Origin: an uncultured virus (IMG/VR IMGVR_UViG_3300024999_000095)
Taxonomy: Duplodnaviria; Heunggongvirae; Uroviricota; Caudoviricetes
IMG/VR virus record: IMGVR_UViG_3300024999_000095
Direction: 5' to 3' (one strand)
Length of the DNA stretch: 20,000 bases
In this document: positions 1,829 through 17,692 of the stretch, in pieces
Position numbering within the stretch: the first letter of the stretch is position 1
How the letters are laid out: each line of letters begins with the position of its first letter
Notes under the pieces: model-generated
What the model was told of the DNA's origin: nothing
The model's database searches: none
What the model saw: the letters and a program-made list of their open reading frames with translations, nothing else
Made by a program: the position numbers and the translations under genes

Positions 1829-2938
1829 ATGGAACGTAAAAAAAAATCACAGGCTAAGGAAATGACAAGAGAAGAGGTTGGGTATTTCCTCGTTGGGGTA
1901 CAAACGACAATTGCCGAGAGAGGACTTGTGCAAAAAGATTTGGCACTCGAAGCTGGTGTCAGCCCTGAAAACTTCAGCAAGGTTCTCAATCGCCGCATCG
2001 GGTCATCCGCAAAGTACCGGAAAAAAATCTGTGATGCTCTTAGCGTAACCGTTGAAGAAATGGTGATGATCGGCAAGCCTACCCCCGAACCTCAACAGGA
2101 GGCCACTAAATTCCCGGTGGCGATCCCCAAAGATTACCTTCCCGCTGATGAGGTGGCGCAATACGTAGCCAGAGTGTCTACCTCTTTATTAGATATATCT
2201 GCTTCTTATTCTAAAATAGACGCCCGTTTAAAATATTGGCAGCAACTTTTTGAGACTATGCCAGTTCCTGTGGTCGTTCTTAGAGACGGGTTGGTTTATA
2301 ATCAGAACCGGCGCAGCAGGGCGATCTGGGATGGTTTGGGCCGGTCGCTGTGTTCAGGGTGTCGAGACGAGAAGTGCAAGGAGTACGACTGCAATATCAA
2401 GGACGCAATTGATAAGGGGAAAGACATCGAAGTTTACAAGATGATCGGGGACGATTACTACAAAGTAATAGCAACTCATTTTTCAGCGAATAACCATGAA
2501 TACACGACAATTGTTATTACCCCGATTGCTGAATGTAAAACAGCTATGGAAAAACTTACTCAACTTGCCGACGAGCGGGCATTCCTCGAAAGCAATCAAT
2601 ATGAGGCGGCAGAATACTACGCTGATGCAAATCGCCGCGTGAGTTACTGCAACCATGCATTTCTTCGACTATTTGAGATTGAACGCGACGACATAAAAAC
2701 GACCGACGACTTTCATATTCTTTTGTCAAGGAAACTTTTCTACTTCCAGCACGTAGCGAAAGCAGCAGACGAGGTTCGTATGTCTAAGAAACCGGCAGAA
2801 GTGGTGGCAAAGTTGACGAACAATAAGACGGTCCATTTCATATTCAAACCACATCTCAAGGACGGAGAACTGCAAGGGGTGATGGTGATGGTATTAACCC
2901 CTGAGTTATACGAGGCATTCAACGGAGGTGAAAAATGA
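1829..2938 (+). CDS. CI-position repressor: XRE-family HTH fused to two PAS-like domains (369 aa)
   Basis: ATG 1829 with GGGAG RBS; HTH 'RGLVQKDLALEAGVSPENFSKVLN'; PAS-like 'WQQLFETMPVPVVVLRDGLVYNQN' and 'EYYADANRRVSYCNHAFLRLFEI'; lies between cro and int. Confidence 0.8.
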   Translation: MERKKKSQAKEMTREEVGYFLVGVQTTIAERGLVQKDLALEAGVSPENFSKVLNRRIGSSAKYRKKICDALSVTVEEMVMIGKPTPEPQQEATKFPVAIPKDYLPADEVAQYVARVSTSLLDISASYSKIDARLKYWQQLFETMPVPVVVLRDGLVYNQNRRSRAIWDGLGRSLCSGCRDEKCKEYDCNIKDAIDKGKDIEVYKMIGDDYYKVIATHFSANNHEYTTIVITPIAECKTAMEKLTQLADERAFLESNQYEAAEYYADANRRVSYCNHAFLRLFEIERDDIKTTDDFHILLSRKLFYFQHVAKAADEVRMSKKPAEVVAKLTNNKTVHFIFKPHLKDGELQGVMVMVLTPELYEAFNGGEK

Positions 2939-4041
2939 GTGCGATAGTACGGGAGAAACCCAAAGGTTCAGGCACATGGTACGTTTTTGTCAATGACAAC
3001 GGCCACCGACGAGCAGCCAAGATGCCCAACCGCCGCACCGCCGAGGTGATTGCAAAGGAAATCAACGCTGAGATGATCGCCGGGAAATTCAATCTCGGTA
3101 CTAAGGAGGCGGGAACGGTGCGGGAGTATGCTGAACGGTGGATGGAACACTCTACGGTCAAACCAGCTACCCGCAGCAATTACCAATCAATCCTGACCAC
3201 CCACATCTACCCCAAGTTTGCCGATAAGCCGGTTGACCAGATCAAGCGGGGAGATGTAAAAGACTTTTTGAAGAAGAAGATCAAGGATGGATTGAGCCTG
3301 TCCACGGCCAAGAATATCAAGGCGGCACTCTACAACATTTTTGAGACTGCCCTGGACGATGAGGCTATCCCCTCAAACCCTGCAAGTCGGGTCGGTGAGT
3401 TGGTAGCGAGGAATCAGAAGGCGCACACTACCGGCAAGGCTGGATTCTTCACGCCGGAAGAATTGACTAAATTGTTAAACGCTTTCCTCAAGTATCGACC
3501 GCAACACTACTTGCTTGCGTTGTTATTGGCACGTACAGGCATGAGGGTTGGTGAAGCTGTAGCTTTGCAATGGCGGGACTGCAACTTTGACACTAAACAG
3601 ATATCAGTGAGACGGGCGAAGTCGCGGACGGTCATCGACACTACCAAATCAGGCAAGGATAGACTGATAGATATGAGTGACCAGTTAGCCTCCGAATTGA
3701 GGAAGAAGCGCACCGAGGCAGTGTCCGACTCACTCAGAACGGGGCGAAGGTCAGACTATATATTCGTCGGCAGGACAAGTGCGACACTCGACCCGACTGC
3801 GTGGCGTAAGCGCAACTTCGATCCGATGTGTGAAAAGGCGGGGCTGGGGAAAAGGTTGGTTAAGGATCTCCGGCATACTTACGCATCGTTACTCCTGTAC
3901 CACGGCAAGTCGCTGAAATATGTGCAGCAGCAACTCGGACATCACTCTATCAAGATTACGGCAGACACGTACTCGCACCTCATCAAGAACCCGGATCATG
4001 GGACTGTTAATGTGCTGGACGATGTAGTGAGTGGGGAGTAG
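2935..4041 (+). CDS. int: Tyrosine recombinase (phage integrase)
   Basis: 'ARTGMRVGEAVALQW', 'KDLRHTYAS', 'LGHHSIKITADTYSH'; N-terminal arm-binding-like segment; adjacent to attP. Confidence 0.97.
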   Translation: MSAIVREKPKGSGTWYVFVNDNGHRRAAKMPNRRTAEVIAKEINAEMIAGKFNLGTKEAGTVREYAERWMEHSTVKPATRSNYQSILTTHIYPKFADKPVDQIKRGDVKDFLKKKIKDGLSLSTAKNIKAALYNIFETALDDEAIPSNPASRVGELVARNQKAHTTGKAGFFTPEELTKLLNAFLKYRPQHYLLALLLARTGMRVGEAVALQWRDCNFDTKQISVRRAKSRTVIDTTKSGKDRLIDMSDQLASELRKKRTEAVSDSLRTGRRSDYIFVGRTSATLDPTAWRKRNFDPMCEKAGLGKRLVKDLRHTYASLLLYHGKSLKYVQQQLGHHSIKITADTYSHLIKNPDHGTVNVLDDVVSGE

Positions 4042-6048: not shown

Positions 6049-6250
6049 ACCTCCTTGCCGCTAAGTATTCAGCGGCCTCCAAACAACTCCGGGAAAGATA
6101 GCGTAAGTCTGATTCAGACAAGTACACCTTGCCGCACTCCCCATCGCCATCAGCATCAAGCATATATCCTTTGAAATGCTTGCCATCCACAGTCGGACTA
6201 AAGTTGCCAAGGAATTTCATATCCTCCCTTGCTTGCTTGCTCAGTTCCAT
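6035..6250 (-). CDS. Hypothetical phage protein (MELSKQ...)
   Basis: AAGGAGG RBS before ATG 6250; first gene of the leftward accessory operon. Confidence 0.75.
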   Translation of the reverse strand: MELSKQAREDMKFLGNFSPTVDGKHFKGYMLDADGDGECGKVYLSESDLRYLSRSCLEAAEYLAARRCDGQ

Positions 6251-6306
6251 CACCCCTCCTTTTGTTCTACATTCTAGAATCAAAGAAACTCTGCCTTGTA
6301 GATCAA

Positions 6307-6342
6307 ATATTACTTGCCTATCACAAAAAAATCAAGTATATT
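6307..6342. promoter_or_regulatory. Overlapping divergent sigma70 promoters
   Basis: Rightward TTGCCT(6314)-17-TATATT(6337); leftward TTGATT(rc 6330-6335)-17-TAATAT(rc 6307-6312). Confidence 0.6.
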
Positions 6343-6370
6343 TTACGTATGATAATAAAAAAGGAGGCGC

Positions 6371-6538
6371 ATGAAGAAACCAGCAATTACAGAGACTATC
6401 TGCCTTGAGTGTGTTTGTCAACGCTGCGGTCATCGGTGGGTAGCGCGGGGCAAGGTTGCTCCTAAGCTCTGCCCCAATCAGAAATGTCACAGTCCTAATT
6501 GGACTACGGCTAAGAAGGTTAAGAAGGAGGGGATATGA
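6371..6538 (+). CDS. Small zinc-ribbon protein, 55 aa (CQRCGHRW...PKLCPNQKCHSPNW)
   Basis: Hand translation (not in ORF track); AAGGAGG RBS; ATGA overlap with the next gene. Confidence 0.85.
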   Translation: MKKPAITETICLECVCQRCGHRWVARGKVAPKLCPNQKCHSPNWTTAKKVKKEGI

Positions 6539-6726
6539 AACCATCACCAGAAAACGGAGGAGGTTGGGTTAAGCCGACCTTCAGCGAGATATCAGAGAGG
6601 TGCCCGTGGCGGGACGTTGGTCAATGCATAGTATTATGGACAGCGGAGAGATATAGGAAGCTGGGCGGGGCCAACTGTTCGCCAGAGCATTGCGCTGTGT
6701 TCTACTGGATCAAGGAGATGCGATGA
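6535..6726 (+). CDS. Small Cys-containing hypothetical protein
   Basis: ORF track; AAGGAGG RBS; coupled overlaps. Confidence 0.7.
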   Translation: MKPSPENGGGWVKPTFSEISERCPWRDVGQCIVLWTAERYRKLGGANCSPEHCAVFYWIKEMR

Positions 6727-7046
6727 AGATCCAAGCGCACCGCATCCGCATCACCACTCCGCAGCCGATAAGGTGGTATGCCGACAAAGTAGGGCGGCAG
6801 TTTTGGGCTGAATACGTAGGCTCTGATTTTTGCTGGAAGGTAATTCAGGAAGGGAATACAGACACGCCACGGTACGTTCATGCGTTTGAGTGTGTGGTCG
6901 TGCGTGAGGCTGAGGTTGAGGTTGACCTGATACAGACAGTACGGGAGATTAAGAAATGCAAGTGCGACTTCCGCACCCGCTTAGTCGGTGACGGATGCTC
7001 TGTTTGCAACCCTGAGTATGCAGCGCAATTCAAAGAGGATGAATGA
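6723..7046 (+). CDS. Hypothetical phage protein with C-terminal 'CKC...GDGCSVCNP' motif
   Basis: ATG 6723 after AAGGAG; ATGA overlap. Confidence 0.75.
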   Translation: MKIQAHRIRITTPQPIRWYADKVGRQFWAEYVGSDFCWKVIQEGNTDTPRYVHAFECVVVREAEVEVDLIQTVREIKKCKCDFRTRLVGDGCSVCNPEYAAQFKEDE

Positions 7047-7222
7047 TGGACCAGGCTACAATAGGCCTAGACCTTGTTGTTGGGGGGATATTATCAAGGA
7101 TTGCTGGTTGCGAAGAGTACCGCGACATCTGCGAGGACATCCACGCGCAGCTATCCGAGCGGGGGGAGGTGGACCCATACACTCGTGATCGGCTGAAAAT
7201 TTTGATTGATGGGGAGGAATGA
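7043..7222 (+). CDS. Hypothetical protein, 59 aa (MMDQATIGLDLVVGG...)
   Basis: Hand translation; ATGA overlaps at both ends. Confidence 0.7.
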   Translation: MMDQATIGLDLVVGGILSRIAGCEEYRDICEDIHAQLSERGEVDPYTRDRLKILIDGEE

Positions 7223-7635
7223 TGAAGATACAAGTAATTATTGAGGTGCCGGATGGAACTGAATGCACTGGCTGTGTCCATCTATATGAAAATGTCTTCA
7301 GTGGATACAACTGCGCTTTGTTTGTCGGGGAAACTGGCGATTCGGTATTCATCGAGGGGTTCAGCAAATGCCCCCAGTGCCGCGCCGCAGAGGTGAAGCC
7401 AAGCATAATCACGACAGTAGGAGTTTCCTCAACCGGGCATAATCTTTTGCTGCTTGCTGACGGCAATGGGGTGGATGTAATGAAAAAATACAAGGTGACA
7501 CTAGAACCATTCGCAGAGGTGAAGGATGATGACGCTGGAATGTTGGAGTACGACACTGATACAGGGATATATCGAGTGAGGGGAAATGGCAATAGCCTGG
7601 ATAACCTGCGGGTCGTGCGGAAGGAGGGGGAGTGA
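7219..7635 (+). CDS. Hypothetical Cys-containing phage protein
   Basis: ORF track; GGAGG RBS. Confidence 0.75.
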   Translation: MMKIQVIIEVPDGTECTGCVHLYENVFSGYNCALFVGETGDSVFIEGFSKCPQCRAAEVKPSIITTVGVSSTGHNLLLLADGNGVDVMKKYKVTLEPFAEVKDDDAGMLEYDTDTGIYRVRGNGNSLDNLRVVRKEGE

Positions 7636-7636
7636 G

Positions 7637-7969
7637 ATGAGGGAAGAGGACGAAAGCAACATCGCATGGGGAATGGCGGACACTGAAGACCATTTCAAGA
7701 AGGCAAATGAATGGGCATACCGTATCATGGCCAAGCATGAAGGCTTGAAGTGTGGCGAAACCTGCACTCGTTGCGGAGGATGGGGTTGTATGTGTGTACC
7801 GGTGCTGCTGGTGGAGCTTGATGATGCTGAGGCAAAGTACCAAGAACTGATCATGGCGGTTGCAAAGAAATACCCCGGCGAGTCGAGGCATGAAACGGCA
7901 CTGAGGTATATCATGCAGGCTGAGGCTGTAGATTGCGGCCCTGCTCAATGTGTTAAGGAGGATGAGTGA
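7637..7969 (+). CDS. Hypothetical phage protein ('KYQELIMAVAKKYPGESRHETALRYI')
   Basis: ATG 7637 after a purine-rich RBS; in the operon. Confidence 0.75.
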   Translation: MREEDESNIAWGMADTEDHFKKANEWAYRIMAKHEGLKCGETCTRCGGWGCMCVPVLLVELDDAEAKYQELIMAVAKKYPGESRHETALRYIMQAEAVDCGPAQCVKEDE

Positions 7970-8292
7970 TGGACCTACACAAAAAGATAATGAATATTGG
8001 ATATGACAAAGAGACGATGGATAAATTTGATGATCTAGATGATCTCTTGAATTACAAGATGGGGCACCGTGACGCACGACACGCCGCCGCTGAACTGGCT
8101 ATCGCGCACGATGCCAAGTACGCTGAGTTGATGGAATCGCACCGGGAGTTACTGGCTGCGGTAAACCATTGTCGGGAGGCCCTAAGAGACAACCTATCAA
8201 AGTATGCCTACAAGAACGAACTGATCATGCTTGATGCTCTCACGGTAGCCGACAATGCAATTGCCAAGGCTGAAGCACTGGGAGGGGAATAG
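7966..8292 (+). CDS. Hypothetical phage protein ('YKMGHRDARHAAAELA' motif)
   Basis: ORF track; GGAGG RBS; motif familiar from phage accessory proteins. Confidence 0.8.
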   Translation: MMDLHKKIMNIGYDKETMDKFDDLDDLLNYKMGHRDARHAAAELAIAHDAKYAELMESHRELLAAVNHCREALRDNLSKYAYKNELIMLDALTVADNAIAKAEALGGE

Positions 8293-8442
8293 ATGAATAG
8301 CATAATGATGGGAGTTGGTTCAGTGCTGATTTTCGCTAATGCCCCATCCGCGCTATCTGGCGATGTATGGTCCTTGGGAGCAATCGTTGTGCTGTCTATC
8401 GCCGTTGGGGCTACGCTGTGTAACATAGTGAGTGGAAATTAA
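8293..8442 (+). CDS. Small membrane protein, 49 aa
   Basis: Hand translation MNSIMMGVGSVLIF...; GGAGG RBS; two hydrophobic stretches. Confidence 0.6.
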   Translation: MNSIMMGVGSVLIFANAPSALSGDVWSLGAIVVLSIAVGATLCNIVSGN

Positions 8443-8460
8443 ACTTAACCGGAGGACACC

Positions 8461-8619
8461 ATGAAGAATTTACTGAACGCAATAATGTGTTTCGTATTCG
8501 GGCATCTGCTTCGCCATAGGGCAACGCACAACTCGACCGCGAATATCAACGTATGTTTGCGCTGCGGGAAGGTGGTGCATGTGGATCGGCCTGGGGTGCG
8601 GTTTAGTATTGCGCGATGA
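8461..8619 (+). CDS. Small C-x3-GH...CxxC protein, 52 aa (DUF1660-like pattern)
   Basis: Hand translation MKNLLNAIMCFVFGH...VCLRCGK; GGAGG RBS. Confidence 0.75.
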   Translation: MKNLLNAIMCFVFGHLLRHRATHNSTANINVCLRCGKVVHVDRPGVRFSIAR

Positions 8620-8822
8620 TGGGGTTTGTGTGGGCATGTGTCGTGTTTTCTGTGTGGATACTGATTGGCGCTGGACTATGGGCATACTGGGACGACGACC
8701 AACAAACTCTACTGAAGCAGGCTAAGAAGGACCATGAATACCTGCCGCAATTGCTTATGCTGACATGGCCTGTTTTCCTTTGGAAGTGGTTAAGGCGAGA
8801 CAAATATAAAGTGGTTCGATGA
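8616..8822 (+). CDS. Small two-TM membrane protein
   Basis: ORF track; hydrophobic segments; ATGA overlap. Confidence 0.7.
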   Translation: MMGFVWACVVFSVWILIGAGLWAYWDDDQQTLLKQAKKDHEYLPQLLMLTWPVFLWKWLRRDKYKVVR

Positions 8823-8834
8823 TGGGTGGGGGTA

Positions 8835-8984
8835 ATGAAGATAGTCCATATAGACCAGTGCGGAGATTGCCCACATCGGTATTACGAGGGCAATGAGATA
8901 TGGTGCGGGAAAGAGAACCTAGAGGTTGATGCGTGGTTCATTCCGAAGTGGTGCCCATTGCCTAATGCTGAGGGGGATGAGTAA
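8835..8984 (+). CDS. Small Cys-rich protein, 49 aa (CGDCP...C...IPKWCPL)
   Basis: Hand translation; 'IPxWCPL' motif common in phage microproteins. Confidence 0.75.
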   Translation: MKIVHIDQCGDCPHRYYEGNEIWCGKENLEVDAWFIPKWCPLPNAEGDE

Positions 8985-9017
8985 GTTTGAGGGGATGATC
9001 GGATTAAAACCGATTTT

Positions 9018-9537
9018 TGGTGCAGGGATGGGGTATCTATTCGTTAGGCAAAGCTACCCCTACCCCGATTTTCTTGATGGTTCCTAGGAGAGAGATGTTA
9101 CACTCCTGTAGTACCAAAAAGAGCCGCAAGAGGTGTAAGCGGCAACCATTGCTGGTGACTGACTTCGTTTATCGCGCCGGAGTATTTTTCGTGGACTATC
9201 CCTTGTCCCATATCCACCGATGATATCAATCGAACTGATATCTGCCGTGGTCGCGTTCCCATCAAGTGCCAAAAAGCTTCTTTCGGCGGCGCGTGTATCG
9301 TGTGGGACCGGGGCAAGTCCCGAAGTCAATTCTTTTTGCCAATTGCACAGGTTACTTTTTTGGCTGGCAGGCCGGGGCATGTTAAGAACGCTGAATAAGA
9401 AAAGCCCCTGTCAGCGACACGTTCCAATTAATCCTGCCGGGAAAAGTAAACTCTTGGAAAATGCCGCCAACAAGGGCGTATGGGATTCGCAGTCATTCTA
9501 TCTCCCGGCAGGAAGAAAGTCAAGTATCATTTGACCC
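9018..9537 (-). ncRNA. Candidate large, multi-pseudoknotted non-coding RNA (~520 nt), family not identified
   Basis: No convincing ORF; near-consensus promoter directly upstream; more than 12 helices including long-range and crossing pairings; GNRA tetraloop and T-loop-like loop on the minus strand. Confidence 0.7.
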
Positions 9538-9541
9538 TTAT

Positions 9542-9570
9542 ATTATAACACGAATAGAGAAACCTAGCAA
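9542..9570 (-). promoter_or_regulatory. Strong leftward sigma70 promoter TTGCTA-17-TATAAT (TG-extended)
   Basis: -35 = rc 9565-9570, -10 = rc 9542-9547; predicted start ~9535. Confidence 0.8.
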
Positions 9571-9597
9571 GTAAATTCAGCAGAAAGGTGAAAATAA

Positions 9598-9867
9598 ATG
9601 GAAGAAGATTTACAGTACGCAATAGTGTATATCAACAGGGCAATCCGCAACCTTGCGAAGGTGCCAGAGAAGCAGGCAATTCATGAAGTGCTTGAGATGT
9701 GCGGGGCAATTGACGAACGGTACAAGGAGTTTTGCAGTGAGTTTGACGAACAGGATGGATTACCAGAGGGGACCACATACGGCAAGGAGGATGGGATCTC
9801 GATAGAGTTTTACCTTGAGGCAGACGACTGGCACAAGGTAAGTCTTGCCTTGCGGAAGTTGGGTTAA
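9598..9867 (+). CDS. Acidic hypothetical protein
   Basis: ORF track; AAAGGTG RBS; convergent with the endolysin. Confidence 0.7.
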   Translation: MEEDLQYAIVYINRAIRNLAKVPEKQAIHEVLEMCGAIDERYKEFCSEFDEQDGLPEGTTYGKEDGISIEFYLEADDWHKVSLALRKLG

Positions 9868-10262
9868 CCATTACGCATAATTTCAGATAACTCTTTAGCC
9901 CTCCTGCCCACTTGCCGCGCCCACAATGATTTCAACATCTGATCAGCAGCGGCAGAGTAGTCCCCCTTGTCGATGTAACCGAGTGTCTTATTGAATTTCT
10001 CCAGTCCGTCTATGCCGAGGTTGAAGGCCATGTTGATAAGCACCCCCTGCCGTTCCCCAGAAAGCCCTGAGAAGAACGGCAGGCGTTTGCATAGGGTGGC
10101 TCGTATTTTCTCTACGCGATGCACCAGCAGCCACTCAGCCTCTTCCTCGGTGATTCCAGCGTCGAGATTGATTCCGTAGCCTATGGTGAGGTGGCCGGTC
10201 GTGTCCATATAGGGCCTAGACCGGAACCCTTCATGACGCTTTAGGCCTTCTATCACGCTCAT
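9864..10262 (-). CDS. Endolysin, phage lysozyme (T4-like/GH24-type muramidase)
   Basis: 'LKRHEGFRSRPYMDTTGHLTIGYGINL', 'NMAFNLG', 'SLWARQVGRRA'; start at ATG 10262. Confidence 0.93.
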   Translation of the reverse strand: MSVIEGLKRHEGFRSRPYMDTTGHLTIGYGINLDAGITEEEAEWLLVHRVEKIRATLCKRLPFFSGLSGERQGVLINMAFNLGIDGLEKFNKTLGYIDKGDYSAAADQMLKSLWARQVGRRAKELSEIMRNG

Positions 10263-10537
10263 TAGGGTATTTTTATACCAAAGAAAGTAAGCATCAGGAA
10301 TGCCACAAAACCAATCCCCAGAACAGCGATGACGCTCTTTAAGGTTGACCACTTAATTTCCTGCAACTTTTTCAAGGTAGCAATCAACTCGACAAGGAAT
10401 TGATGCTGCGCCTCGTGCTGAATCCAATACTCAGTGTCGTGGCAGAGTTTACATACCGCAGCGTCATGCCTGATATATGACGCAATCGCCTGCTGTGCCG
10501 CCTGATTAGCAACCTCTCGGATCTCTTCTGGGGTCAT
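10262..10537 (-). CDS. Membrane protein with C-terminal TM, holin-like
   Basis: AAGGA RBS before ATG 10537; C-terminal hydrophobic helix; directly upstream of the endolysin. Confidence 0.65.
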   Translation of the reverse strand: MTPEEIREVANQAAQQAIASYIRHDAAVCKLCHDTEYWIQHEAQHQFLVELIATLKKLQEIKWSTLKSVIAVLGIGFVAFLMLTFFGIKIP

Positions 10538-16794: not shown

Positions 16795-16838
16795 TTATTT
16801 GTTAGGAATAGCGCCCATAGGAATCCATCAAATGATAC

Positions 16839-16867
16839 ATTATACCATGTTTCTCAATTCCTAGCAA
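16839..16867 (-). promoter_or_regulatory. Leftward sigma70 promoter TTGCTA-17-TATAAT (TG-extended)
   Basis: -35 = rc 16862-16867, -10 = rc 16839-16844. Confidence 0.75.
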
Positions 16868-16937
16868 GCAAATAGAGTCACATGGTCAACGAATTATATT
16901 TCGCGTTGTACTTCTGTTTGATCAGCACTCTTTCCAG

Positions 16938-16996: not shown

Positions 16997-17692
16997 ATGG
17001 CTCTATTGCAAGACCTGACTGGACAAACTTTCAATATGCTGTACGTGGAAAAAATCTCACACCGCCACGGACCAAGGAAGAGGCCATACTACCAGTGTAC
17101 CTGCTCATGTGGCGGGACTGCTGTCGTTGAAGGTAGCAACCTGAAAAACGGTTCAGTCAAGTCGTGTGGTTGTTTGTTGAAAAAGGCTCCCCCGAACAAA
17201 ACACACGGAGGCAGGCAGCATCCTCTTTACAGCGTTTGGCAGAATATGAAAAACAGGTGCTACAATAGCAACGTCCCAGCTTACAAAGATTATGGGGAGA
17301 TCGGCGTTGACGTATGCGATTTGTGGCGTAACGACTTCCAACCGTTCTTTGACTGGGCCAAAGCAAACAACTGGGAAAAGGGTTTAGAGATTGACCGTAT
17401 TAAAAACGACAAAGGGTATTCCCCGGACAATTGTAGAATAGTCACAAGGAAAGTAAATCTCACCAACAATGGGATATATAACAACAACACCACCGGATTT
17501 GTTGGCGTTTCCCCTTTGCCACACTCAGAGGGCCGGTACGTCTCAACGGTATCGGTTGATGGCAAGCAAAAGTACCTCGGGACGTTCGATACTGTAGAGG
17601 ACGCTGTAGCAACCCGTAATAGATTCATTGCTGGCAACGCCCTGTTGCTGAAGGTTCAGCCTATGCCCTCTCAAGAAAACTCTGTATCATAG
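16997..17692 (+). CDS. HNH-type homing endonuclease with AP2 domain
   Basis: 'DLTGQTF...CTCSCG...KSCGC', 'LYSVWQNMKNRC', 'EIDRIKNDKGYSPDNCR', AP2 'NTTGFVGV...YLGTFDTVEDAV'; GGAGG RBS. Confidence 0.9.
   Translation: MALLQDLTGQTFNMLYVEKISHRHGPRKRPYYQCTCSCGGTAVVEGSNLKNGSVKSCGCLLKKAPPNKTHGGRQHPLYSVWQNMKNRCYNSNVPAYKDYGEIGVDVCDLWRNDFQPFFDWAKANNWEKGLEIDRIKNDKGYSPDNCRIVTRKVNLTNNGIYNNNTTGFVGVSPLPHSEGRYVSTVSVDGKQKYLGTFDTVEDAVATRNRFIAGNALLLKVQPMPSQENSVS

Follow-up and report, generated by a model that had tools for sequence, protein, structure and literature searches.

An apparently undescribed non-coding locus shared among temperate phages, with a candidate minus-strand RNA gene and a covarying 5' hairpin

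We identified a block of DNA, at positions 9029 to 9597 of a phage sequence, that on balance probably holds a gene for a minus-strand non-coding RNA with a structured 5' domain. Judged from sequence comparison, this block is a sharply bounded, shared, non-coding phage module, and it forms an apparently undescribed phage non-coding RNA locus. The pattern is an unusual one: a non-coding stretch is conserved beyond any surrounding gene and includes one hypervariable hairpin that has kept its pairing. The existence of the transcript, the positions of its two ends and its role are inferred. An initial annotation of the region had proposed a single large, ornate RNA of about 520 nt read leftward from its own promoter. 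One ornate RNA of ~500 nt is partly supported by our analyses, which support a structured RNA for the first ~140 nt only. Overlooked in that annotation were the block's sharp borders and its occurrence in several phages, as well as the hypervariable domain and the terminator-like element T1.

The phage and its gene-free gap

The window (the whole stretch of DNA analysed here, 20,000 nt) comes from a groundwater metagenome and represents part of a temperate phage. Searches of PHROG and Pfam identified an integrase gene at 2935-4041 and two HNH endonucleases, and left most of the remaining proteins without a family. The stretch from about 6130 to 8984 is occupied by small plus-strand genes, and one further plus-strand gene follows at 9598-9867. 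On the minus strand, a long operon extends leftward from 16794 as far as the lysis genes at 9864, where a lysozyme gene occupies 9864-10352. The gap without called genes extends from 8985 to 9597 (613 nt).

Several other features of the phage were recorded. A 382-aa protein encoded just upstream of the integrase (1790-2938) has a Cro/C1-type HTH at its N-terminus together with a weak PAS-like stretch, and is a candidate phage repressor. The protein encoded at 225-941 has a DUF7666 domain followed by pentapeptide repeats. The plus-strand HNH endonuclease gene at 16997-17692 looks like a homing-endonuclease insertion; it is missing from the related phage G002, in which the flanks seen in the window lie ~10 bases apart. 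The closest named relative of the integrase, from a Desulfocapsaceae MAG, is 53% identical, which is too weak to name a host.

A conserved block with sharp borders

Comparison of positions 8400-10400 by blastn matched 9029-9604 in two metagenome loci (L059 and L044) at 94.0% identity, and 9029-9600 in a third (L060) at 92.8%; L032 matches 9114-9604 at 93.9%. A partial copy is present in the IMG/VR contig of G002. L059, L044 and L032 are identical within the block, and because the block sequences of L059, L044 and G002 are the same, there are three distinct block variants in all. The main divisions of the block are as follows.

9029-9597, no strand assigned: conserved non-coding block, present in at least three phage lineages with different flanks on both sides
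9114-9325, minus strand: invariant core, with 0 substitutions among the three variants; its folding is not significant
9405-9512, minus strand: hypervariable domain of 108 nt, 67-80% identical between variants, with indels

Elsewhere in the block, identity between variants is 97-100% in the promoter/RBS spacer and 96.8-98.1% in the 3' domain (9030-9404). The genes of the same phages are 68-84% identical as DNA, or unrelated, compared with 97-100% for most of the block. Between the window and G002, most genes are 68-79% identical and one reaches 90.6%. The genes on the left side of the block are not the same from one variant to the next. Recent transfer, instead of constraint, could account for the near-identity of the core.

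We also compared the contigs of four sequencing runs with positions 8400-10400. In a groundwater run (X1), depth over 9035-9600 was 2-3 times that of the flanks, and contigs departed towards three or more other contexts, on the left at 9033-9043 and on the right at 9598-9600; a single contig had the left flank in common and diverged at 9033, the left edge of the block. Landfill and wastewater runs from two further studies carried 9101-9434 with 6 differences and 9048-9413 with 10, and lysozyme pieces in these runs differed at ~20% of positions. A search of sequencing runs listed no RNA run that contains the sequence. Two wastewater runs labelled RNA-Seq are probably DNA; they are available as contigs and are silent on transcripts.

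Exact-word scans returned 33 metagenome loci, of which three (L059, L044 and L060) were true copies, and pattern scans of IMG/VR found the block in only one contig, that of G002, to which a search led by the holin-like protein also returned. No homologue of the block was found in GenBank phages, in plasmids or by genome scans, and it was absent from 30 loci with relatives of the lysozyme.

Two further identities were considered and rejected. No inverted or direct repeat joins the two ends of the block, as a transposon or MITE would require, and a self-splicing intron is contradicted by the lack of an Rfam match and by flanks that are different, complete genes. Two IMG/VR contigs end inside the block, one of them at the variant site 9113; considered as a genome end or cos site, this end fits an assembly break.

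Smaller observations were also made within the block. One contig of run X1 joins its right part (promoter and 5' domain, to 9343) to a different left sequence; there may also be copies of the 5' module that lack this core. The motif AGT(A/G)CCAAAAAG is repeated at 9110-9121 and 9265-9276, 155 nt apart, and CCGGGGCA is repeated at 9308-9315 and 9372-9379, 64 nt apart; both repeats are kept in all variants.

An accessory-gene slot at the right edge

The block ends in every variant at the start codon of a small gene.

9585-9600, plus strand: conserved RBS AAGGTG and ATG of a variable small gene; the block ends at the ATG in all variants
9598-9867, plus strand: small acidic accessory gene of 89 aa, without a family match

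The slot to the right of the block holds unrelated proteins of 89 aa in the window, 106 aa in L059 (3348-3668) and 91 aa in L060 (2950-3225), all acidic and none with a family match. Relatives were found neither for the 89-aa protein, among viral contigs, nor for a 451-aa protein. The slot may be a hotspot for accessory or anti-defence genes. A fourth gene start at the slot appears as a loose end in run X1. The endolysin beyond it has also been swapped, with Phage_lysozyme in the window (9864-10352) and Glyco_hydro_108 plus PG_binding in L059 (3676-4164), and the holin-like genes beside the swapped endolysin are 85-95% identical.

A predicted promoter with a twin at the head of the lysis-gene operon

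The leftward promoter-like site named in the initial annotation (here P1) is present, and a closely similar site stands before the long operon.

9570-9542, minus strand: P1, TTGCTA-17-TATAAT with a TG extension, 10 of 12 consensus matches, 97-100% identical in the variants
16828-16868, minus strand: twin promoter with an 11-mer, heading the long operon (genes 16794 to 9864), conserved in G002
9524-9534, no strand assigned: the 11-mer GTATCATTTGA beside the -10 element, whose sole other copy, inverted, is at 16828-16838
9495-9523, minus strand: second promoter-like site, TTGACT-17-TAGAAT, a candidate whose hexamers are kept in the three variants and whose spacer varies

Promoter-like sites occur in the window at the chance rate (20 found, 19.6 expected), and P1 is made credible by its pairing with the twin, by the two elements that they have in common and by their recurrence in G002. 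In a whole-window scan, the twin site at 16867-16839 had the same hexamers, spacing and TG extension as P1. The sequence CTTGCTAGG is common to both, and these are its only two exact copies in the window. Compared with P1, the twin promoter has the 11-mer GTATCATTTGA in the opposite orientation and displaced by 7 nt; with one mismatch allowed, 0.42 copies are expected, and two or more were found in 15 of 200 shuffles. This element may be a binding site for a shared regulator.

In G002 the same two promoters recur on a common strand, separated by ~7 kb as in the window; the pattern matches there twice with 0 mismatches and a reversed control pattern 0 times. The operon promoter region, at 29298 in G002, is a conserved island between G002 and the window. 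Scanning IMG/VR with the promoter pattern gave 39 loci, among which only the two of G002 were related. From P1, transcription is predicted to start near 9535. Because P1 is built like the operon promoter and has GTATCATTTGA in common with it, the RNA is probably made together with the lysis-gene operon, and the arrangement suggests that P1 is co-regulated with an operon ending in lysis genes.

Folding of the region and choice of strand

The initial annotation had proposed a comparison with shuffled sequences, and the minus strand of the region does fold better than these, at a z-score of about -4. The whole-region fold in the window gave z -4.18, with none of 100 shuffles as good, and the three variants gave -4.1, -4.2 and -3.6. 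For the plus strand the values were -1.27 in the window and -1.5, -2.9 and -2.4 in the three variants, and the background, from both strands of 18 other windows (36 values), ranged from -2.6 to +2.5.

Every complementary pair listed in the initial annotation could be located, only the GGGGC/GCCCC pairing being off by one base, and the ACCA-GCAA-UGGU hairpin and the GUUCGAU loop are both present on the minus strand. The T-loop-like hairpin was considered as a tRNA or attP fragment and rejected, since ARAGORN called none and the register of the loop, by eye, is unlike that of a T-arm. By arithmetic, 520 nt should contain ~2 perfect 8-bp pairs, ~8 perfect 7-bp pairs and ~0.03 of 11 bp. Pairs of 7-8 bp are thus expected by chance and the 11-bp helix alone stands out by itself. 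The long-range pairs of 7-8 bp that had been read as a pseudoknot are at chance-level number and never vary, and the reading is not upheld. The proposed hairpin 9389-9394/9411-9416 also fails, with only 4 of its 6 pairs kept in L060.

RNAalifold predicted 141 pairs for the three variants. Eight of these were changed on both sides, compared with 0-2 in slid controls and 3.0 +/- 1.4 in shuffled alignments (0 of 500 reached eight). Helix A, the 13-bp helix described below, accounts for six of these pairs and its extension for one; the last is 9369/9337. The 118 predicted pairs that never vary among the variants are, for that reason, uninformative. Of 19 variant sites, 9 fell at positions left unpaired in a fold computed from the window sequence only, which is no enrichment (P 0.24).

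A structured 5' domain

The first 142 nt of the predicted RNA carry the folding signal (z -3.2 to -4.6 across variants, with none of 200 shuffles as good). The following elements were identified.

9518-9536, minus strand: hairpin at the 5' end of the predicted RNA, in the DNA an inverted repeat GTCAA-N7-TTGAC
9501-9513, minus strand: 5' arm of helix A, pairing with 9432-9444
9432-9444, minus strand: 3' arm of helix A, 13 pairs of which 6 are changed on both sides, including the 11-bp helix
9454-9477 with 9404-9427, minus strand: helix B (17 + 6 bp), the minimum-energy fold in the window and L060
9394-9403, minus strand: U-rich run UUUUCUUAUU, which with helix B forms the terminator-like T1, ~140 nt from the predicted start

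The 5'-end hairpin is identical in the window and L059 and keeps 19 of 23 bases in L060; no further copies of its GTCAA-N7-TTGAC repeat were found. Helix A contains the 11-bp helix (9432-9442/9503-9513) of the initial annotation, which is above chance and has kept its pairing through six double changes: 11 of 11, 11 of 11 and 10 of 11 pairs form in the three variants, though the helix lies within the hypervariable stretch.

Helix B is paired in 67 of 69 cells. Two breaks occur, six changes affect one side only and pass through G-U, and double changes are absent. Read on the plus strand, the five G-U pairs of this helix would become A-C mismatches, which identifies the minus strand as that of the RNA; the strand assigned in the initial annotation is borne out, as the G-U pairs and the one-sided changes fit the minus strand only. 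The folds containing helix A and helix B are nearly equal in the 5' domain, and because the two helices interleave, they would either exclude each other or form a pseudoknot.

The base of helix B is GC-rich, its stem and loop are unusually long, and UUUUCUUAUU comes directly after it in all three variants. Helix and run together look like an intrinsic terminator (T1). A terminator scan did not call T1 because its loop limit is 3-8 nt. If active, T1 would stop transcripts before the core.

The 3' core and the outer hairpins

The 3' 293 nt taken alone gave z -1.77, with 13 of 200 shuffles as good, and -1.00 on the plus strand. Two hairpins near the left edge were noted.

9116-9143, minus strand: T2, a tentative second terminator-like site in which UCUUUUU comes after hairpin 9123-9127/9139-9143; ~420 nt from the predicted start
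9030-9075, plus strand: hairpin GGGGTA...TACCCC followed by TTTTCTT, z +0.76, weak

T2 folds no better than shuffles (z -0.24). The hairpin at 9030-9075 may be the terminator of the early plus-strand operon, and the change present in L059 and L060 fits plus-strand pairing slightly better. Covariation, which the initial annotation had named as a check on its structure, divides the region: helix A covaries, and in the 3' part 106 of 107 pairs are without a double change, the exception being 9369/9337. The single large ornate fold is accordingly not sustained, as the 3' two thirds are nearly invariant, 118 of the 141 predicted pairs do not vary, and the folding of this part is no better than that of shuffles.

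A possible trans-acting RNA

In the reading that we favour, the segment 9029-9597 is a self-contained non-coding cassette, exchanged and kept by a small group of mosaic temperate phages. P1, a putative strong sigma-70-type promoter, would read leftward on the minus strand, and the RNA would probably be made together with the long operon that ends in lysis. The predicted transcript would begin with the conserved 5' hairpin, followed by a hypervariable domain of ~110 nt in which the long hairpin of helix A is kept by compensatory changes. This domain would end in the long, G-U-rich helix B and its U-run, resembling an intrinsic terminator, and read-through past T1 would add a nearly invariant tail of 290-370 nt. 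More tentatively, we suggest a trans-acting phage RNA with a specificity hairpin: the invariant part may form the functional body and bind a conserved partner of host or phage origin, and the swappable hairpin may be an allele-specific determinant, as in antisense-RNA immunity systems.

A partial parallel is the c4 antisense RNA of phages P1 and P7, for which a published account (PMC12197685) describes base-pairing segments that differ between related phages and lead to different immunity. The hairpin of the block likewise differs strongly between related phages with its pairing kept. Unlike the 77-nt c4 RNA, the candidate RNA is several times larger and has no Rfam match, and its covarying segments pair with each other, no complementary target having been found. 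Searches for other targets of the variable domain in the phage DNA collected gave only 10-mers, at the chance rate.

An equally tentative proposal is that the locus represents a new class of large phage RNA, with an invariant scaffold of ~300 nt and a swappable, covarying 'specificity' hairpin, expressed from a late-type promoter and carried as a cassette between unrelated phages. Diversity among the hairpin alleles would be maintained by an arms race or immunity-type selection. The target of the scaffold would be a conserved host or phage partner, with a decoy against a host defence as one example.

Alternative readings of the block

It is conceivable, although we think it rather doubtful, that the block works at the DNA level as a regulatory and recombination module, with converging terminators of the early (plus-strand) and late (minus-strand) operons and back-to-back promoters serving the accessory slot and with homology for gene swaps; only the ~140-nt leader from P1 to T1 would be made, and the core would have no function as RNA. 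Consistent with this, the block ends exactly at the ATG of the variable gene with a conserved RBS, the adjoining endolysin has also been swapped (Phage_lysozyme versus Glyco_hydro_108), terminator-like sites occur on both strands, weak plus-strand promoter candidates with 8-9 of 12 matches overlap the -10 element of P1, the core has no folding signal, and contigs branch at the block borders. However, such a module leaves unexplained why 212 nt stay unchanged while the edges of the block vary by 2-3%, and why a hypervariable hairpin keeps its pairing; in addition, neither of the two outer terminator-like hairpins folds better than shuffled sequence.

Cis-antisense action or transcriptional interference appears unlikely. 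Here P1 would fire head-on against plus-strand transcription that has to cross the block towards the accessory gene, whose level or timing would be governed by the collision and the resulting double-stranded RNA. P1 and the early genes are arranged convergently, and no plus-strand promoter with at least 9 of 12 matches was found in 8500-10100, so the accessory gene may need read-through or a weak promoter overlapping P1. There are precedents, as lambda OOP (77 nt) and PAK_P4as15 (~550 nt, concerning the endolysin) are described as cis-antisense phage RNAs in a published account (PMC12197685). The candidate RNA resembles both in its predicted own promoter, directed against neighbouring genes, and PAK_P4as15 in size. 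It differs in that no gene is overlapped within 9029-9597, the conserved block, and, in the case of PAK_P4as15, in that the endolysin lies upstream on the same strand as the candidate RNA. Moreover, a cis-antisense RNA is complementary by construction and needs neither an invariant core nor a covarying hairpin, and the variable domain paired with its cognate accessory-gene mRNA no better than with non-cognate or shuffled ones.

Coding potential

Four mechanical ORFs of 68-104 aa cross the gap. The statement of the initial annotation that no credible ORF is present therefore holds for credibility rather than for presence: none of these ORFs has a PHROG or Pfam family, and a long ORF across the block had no homologue among 207 scored candidates from 5.8 billion proteins. 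Substitutions among the variants are mostly non-synonymous in nearly every ORF of the block, and contigs carry 1-2-nt indels at 12 listed block positions. The 98-aa ORF loses its ATG in L059, and the window has a 1-nt insertion near the end of this ORF. With neither family nor homologue, mostly non-synonymous substitutions and 1-2-nt indels between copies, we take the block as non-coding, in agreement with the initial annotation.

A small protein hidden in the core, such as the 72-aa minus-strand ORF at 9098-9316 or its 37-aa inner part, is very unlikely. This ORF is open in all three variants, where its single substitution is synonymous, and it is the sole ORF without a damaging change among them. 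Against it, it has a TTG start without a Shine-Dalgarno sequence, the overlapping 98-aa ORF has no family match, and the search with the long block ORF matched 0 of 207 candidates. In a wastewater contig 9232 G>A creates a stop codon (frame read by eye), and deletions within the ORF, of 2, 1 and 2 nt, occur in a diverged contig from landfill.

Known RNA families and comparable systems

The initial annotation recognised no known RNA family, and the Rfam search agrees, with no match at the gathering threshold in the 20 kb; because no Rfam family matches, the candidate is not of a known RNA class. Covariance models of ROOL and GOLLD gave no match at E up to 10 in 8800-9800 or at E up to 5 in L059 and L060. 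The lone match at E up to 10 was to the magnesium sensor RF01056; it scored 17.9 bits (E 0.86), below the curated cut-off of 40, and was rejected, and it was absent in L059 and L060. ARAGORN identified no tRNA genes in the window. A literature search returned no description of this element, although such a search cannot show that the element is unpublished.

GOLLD and ROOL are RNA-only cages, often encoded beside tRNA genes in phages and prophages, and to our knowledge neither has a known protein partner or function. Like them, the block is phage-borne with a candidate RNA of several hundred nt, and an integrase and a lysozyme are present. Unlike them, it has no covariance-model match, no tRNA nearby and no support for structure in the 3' part, and it is found in a handful of metagenomic phages only. 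A diverged member of ROOL, GOLLD or another Rfam family is highly improbable in view of these search results, even though the conserved 3' part and variable 5' part of the block are also described for GOLLD in a published account (10.1101/2024.12.08.627333). The level of GOLLD, according to the same account (10.1101/2024.12.08.627333), rises at lysis. The predicted promoter P1 is, in a similar way, of a type common to an operon ending in lysis genes.

The leader RNA of lambdoid late promoters offers another comparison: a strong promoter gives a short, terminated leader, after which the late genes follow. The near-consensus P1 and the terminator-like helix and U-run at ~140 nt, beside lysis genes, are reminiscent of this system. 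Unlike in lambdoid phages, no protein genes follow on that strand, and the twin promoter is without such a terminator.

Biological significance

There are few large phage RNAs whose function is unknown, and the discovery of each has led to new biology. The block described here lies at a site of accessory-gene exchange between phages. If the candidate RNA is real, the pattern of conservation would point to a specificity determinant carried on an RNA scaffold. If it is not, the block would still be a clear conserved homology anchor for the exchange of modules between phages.
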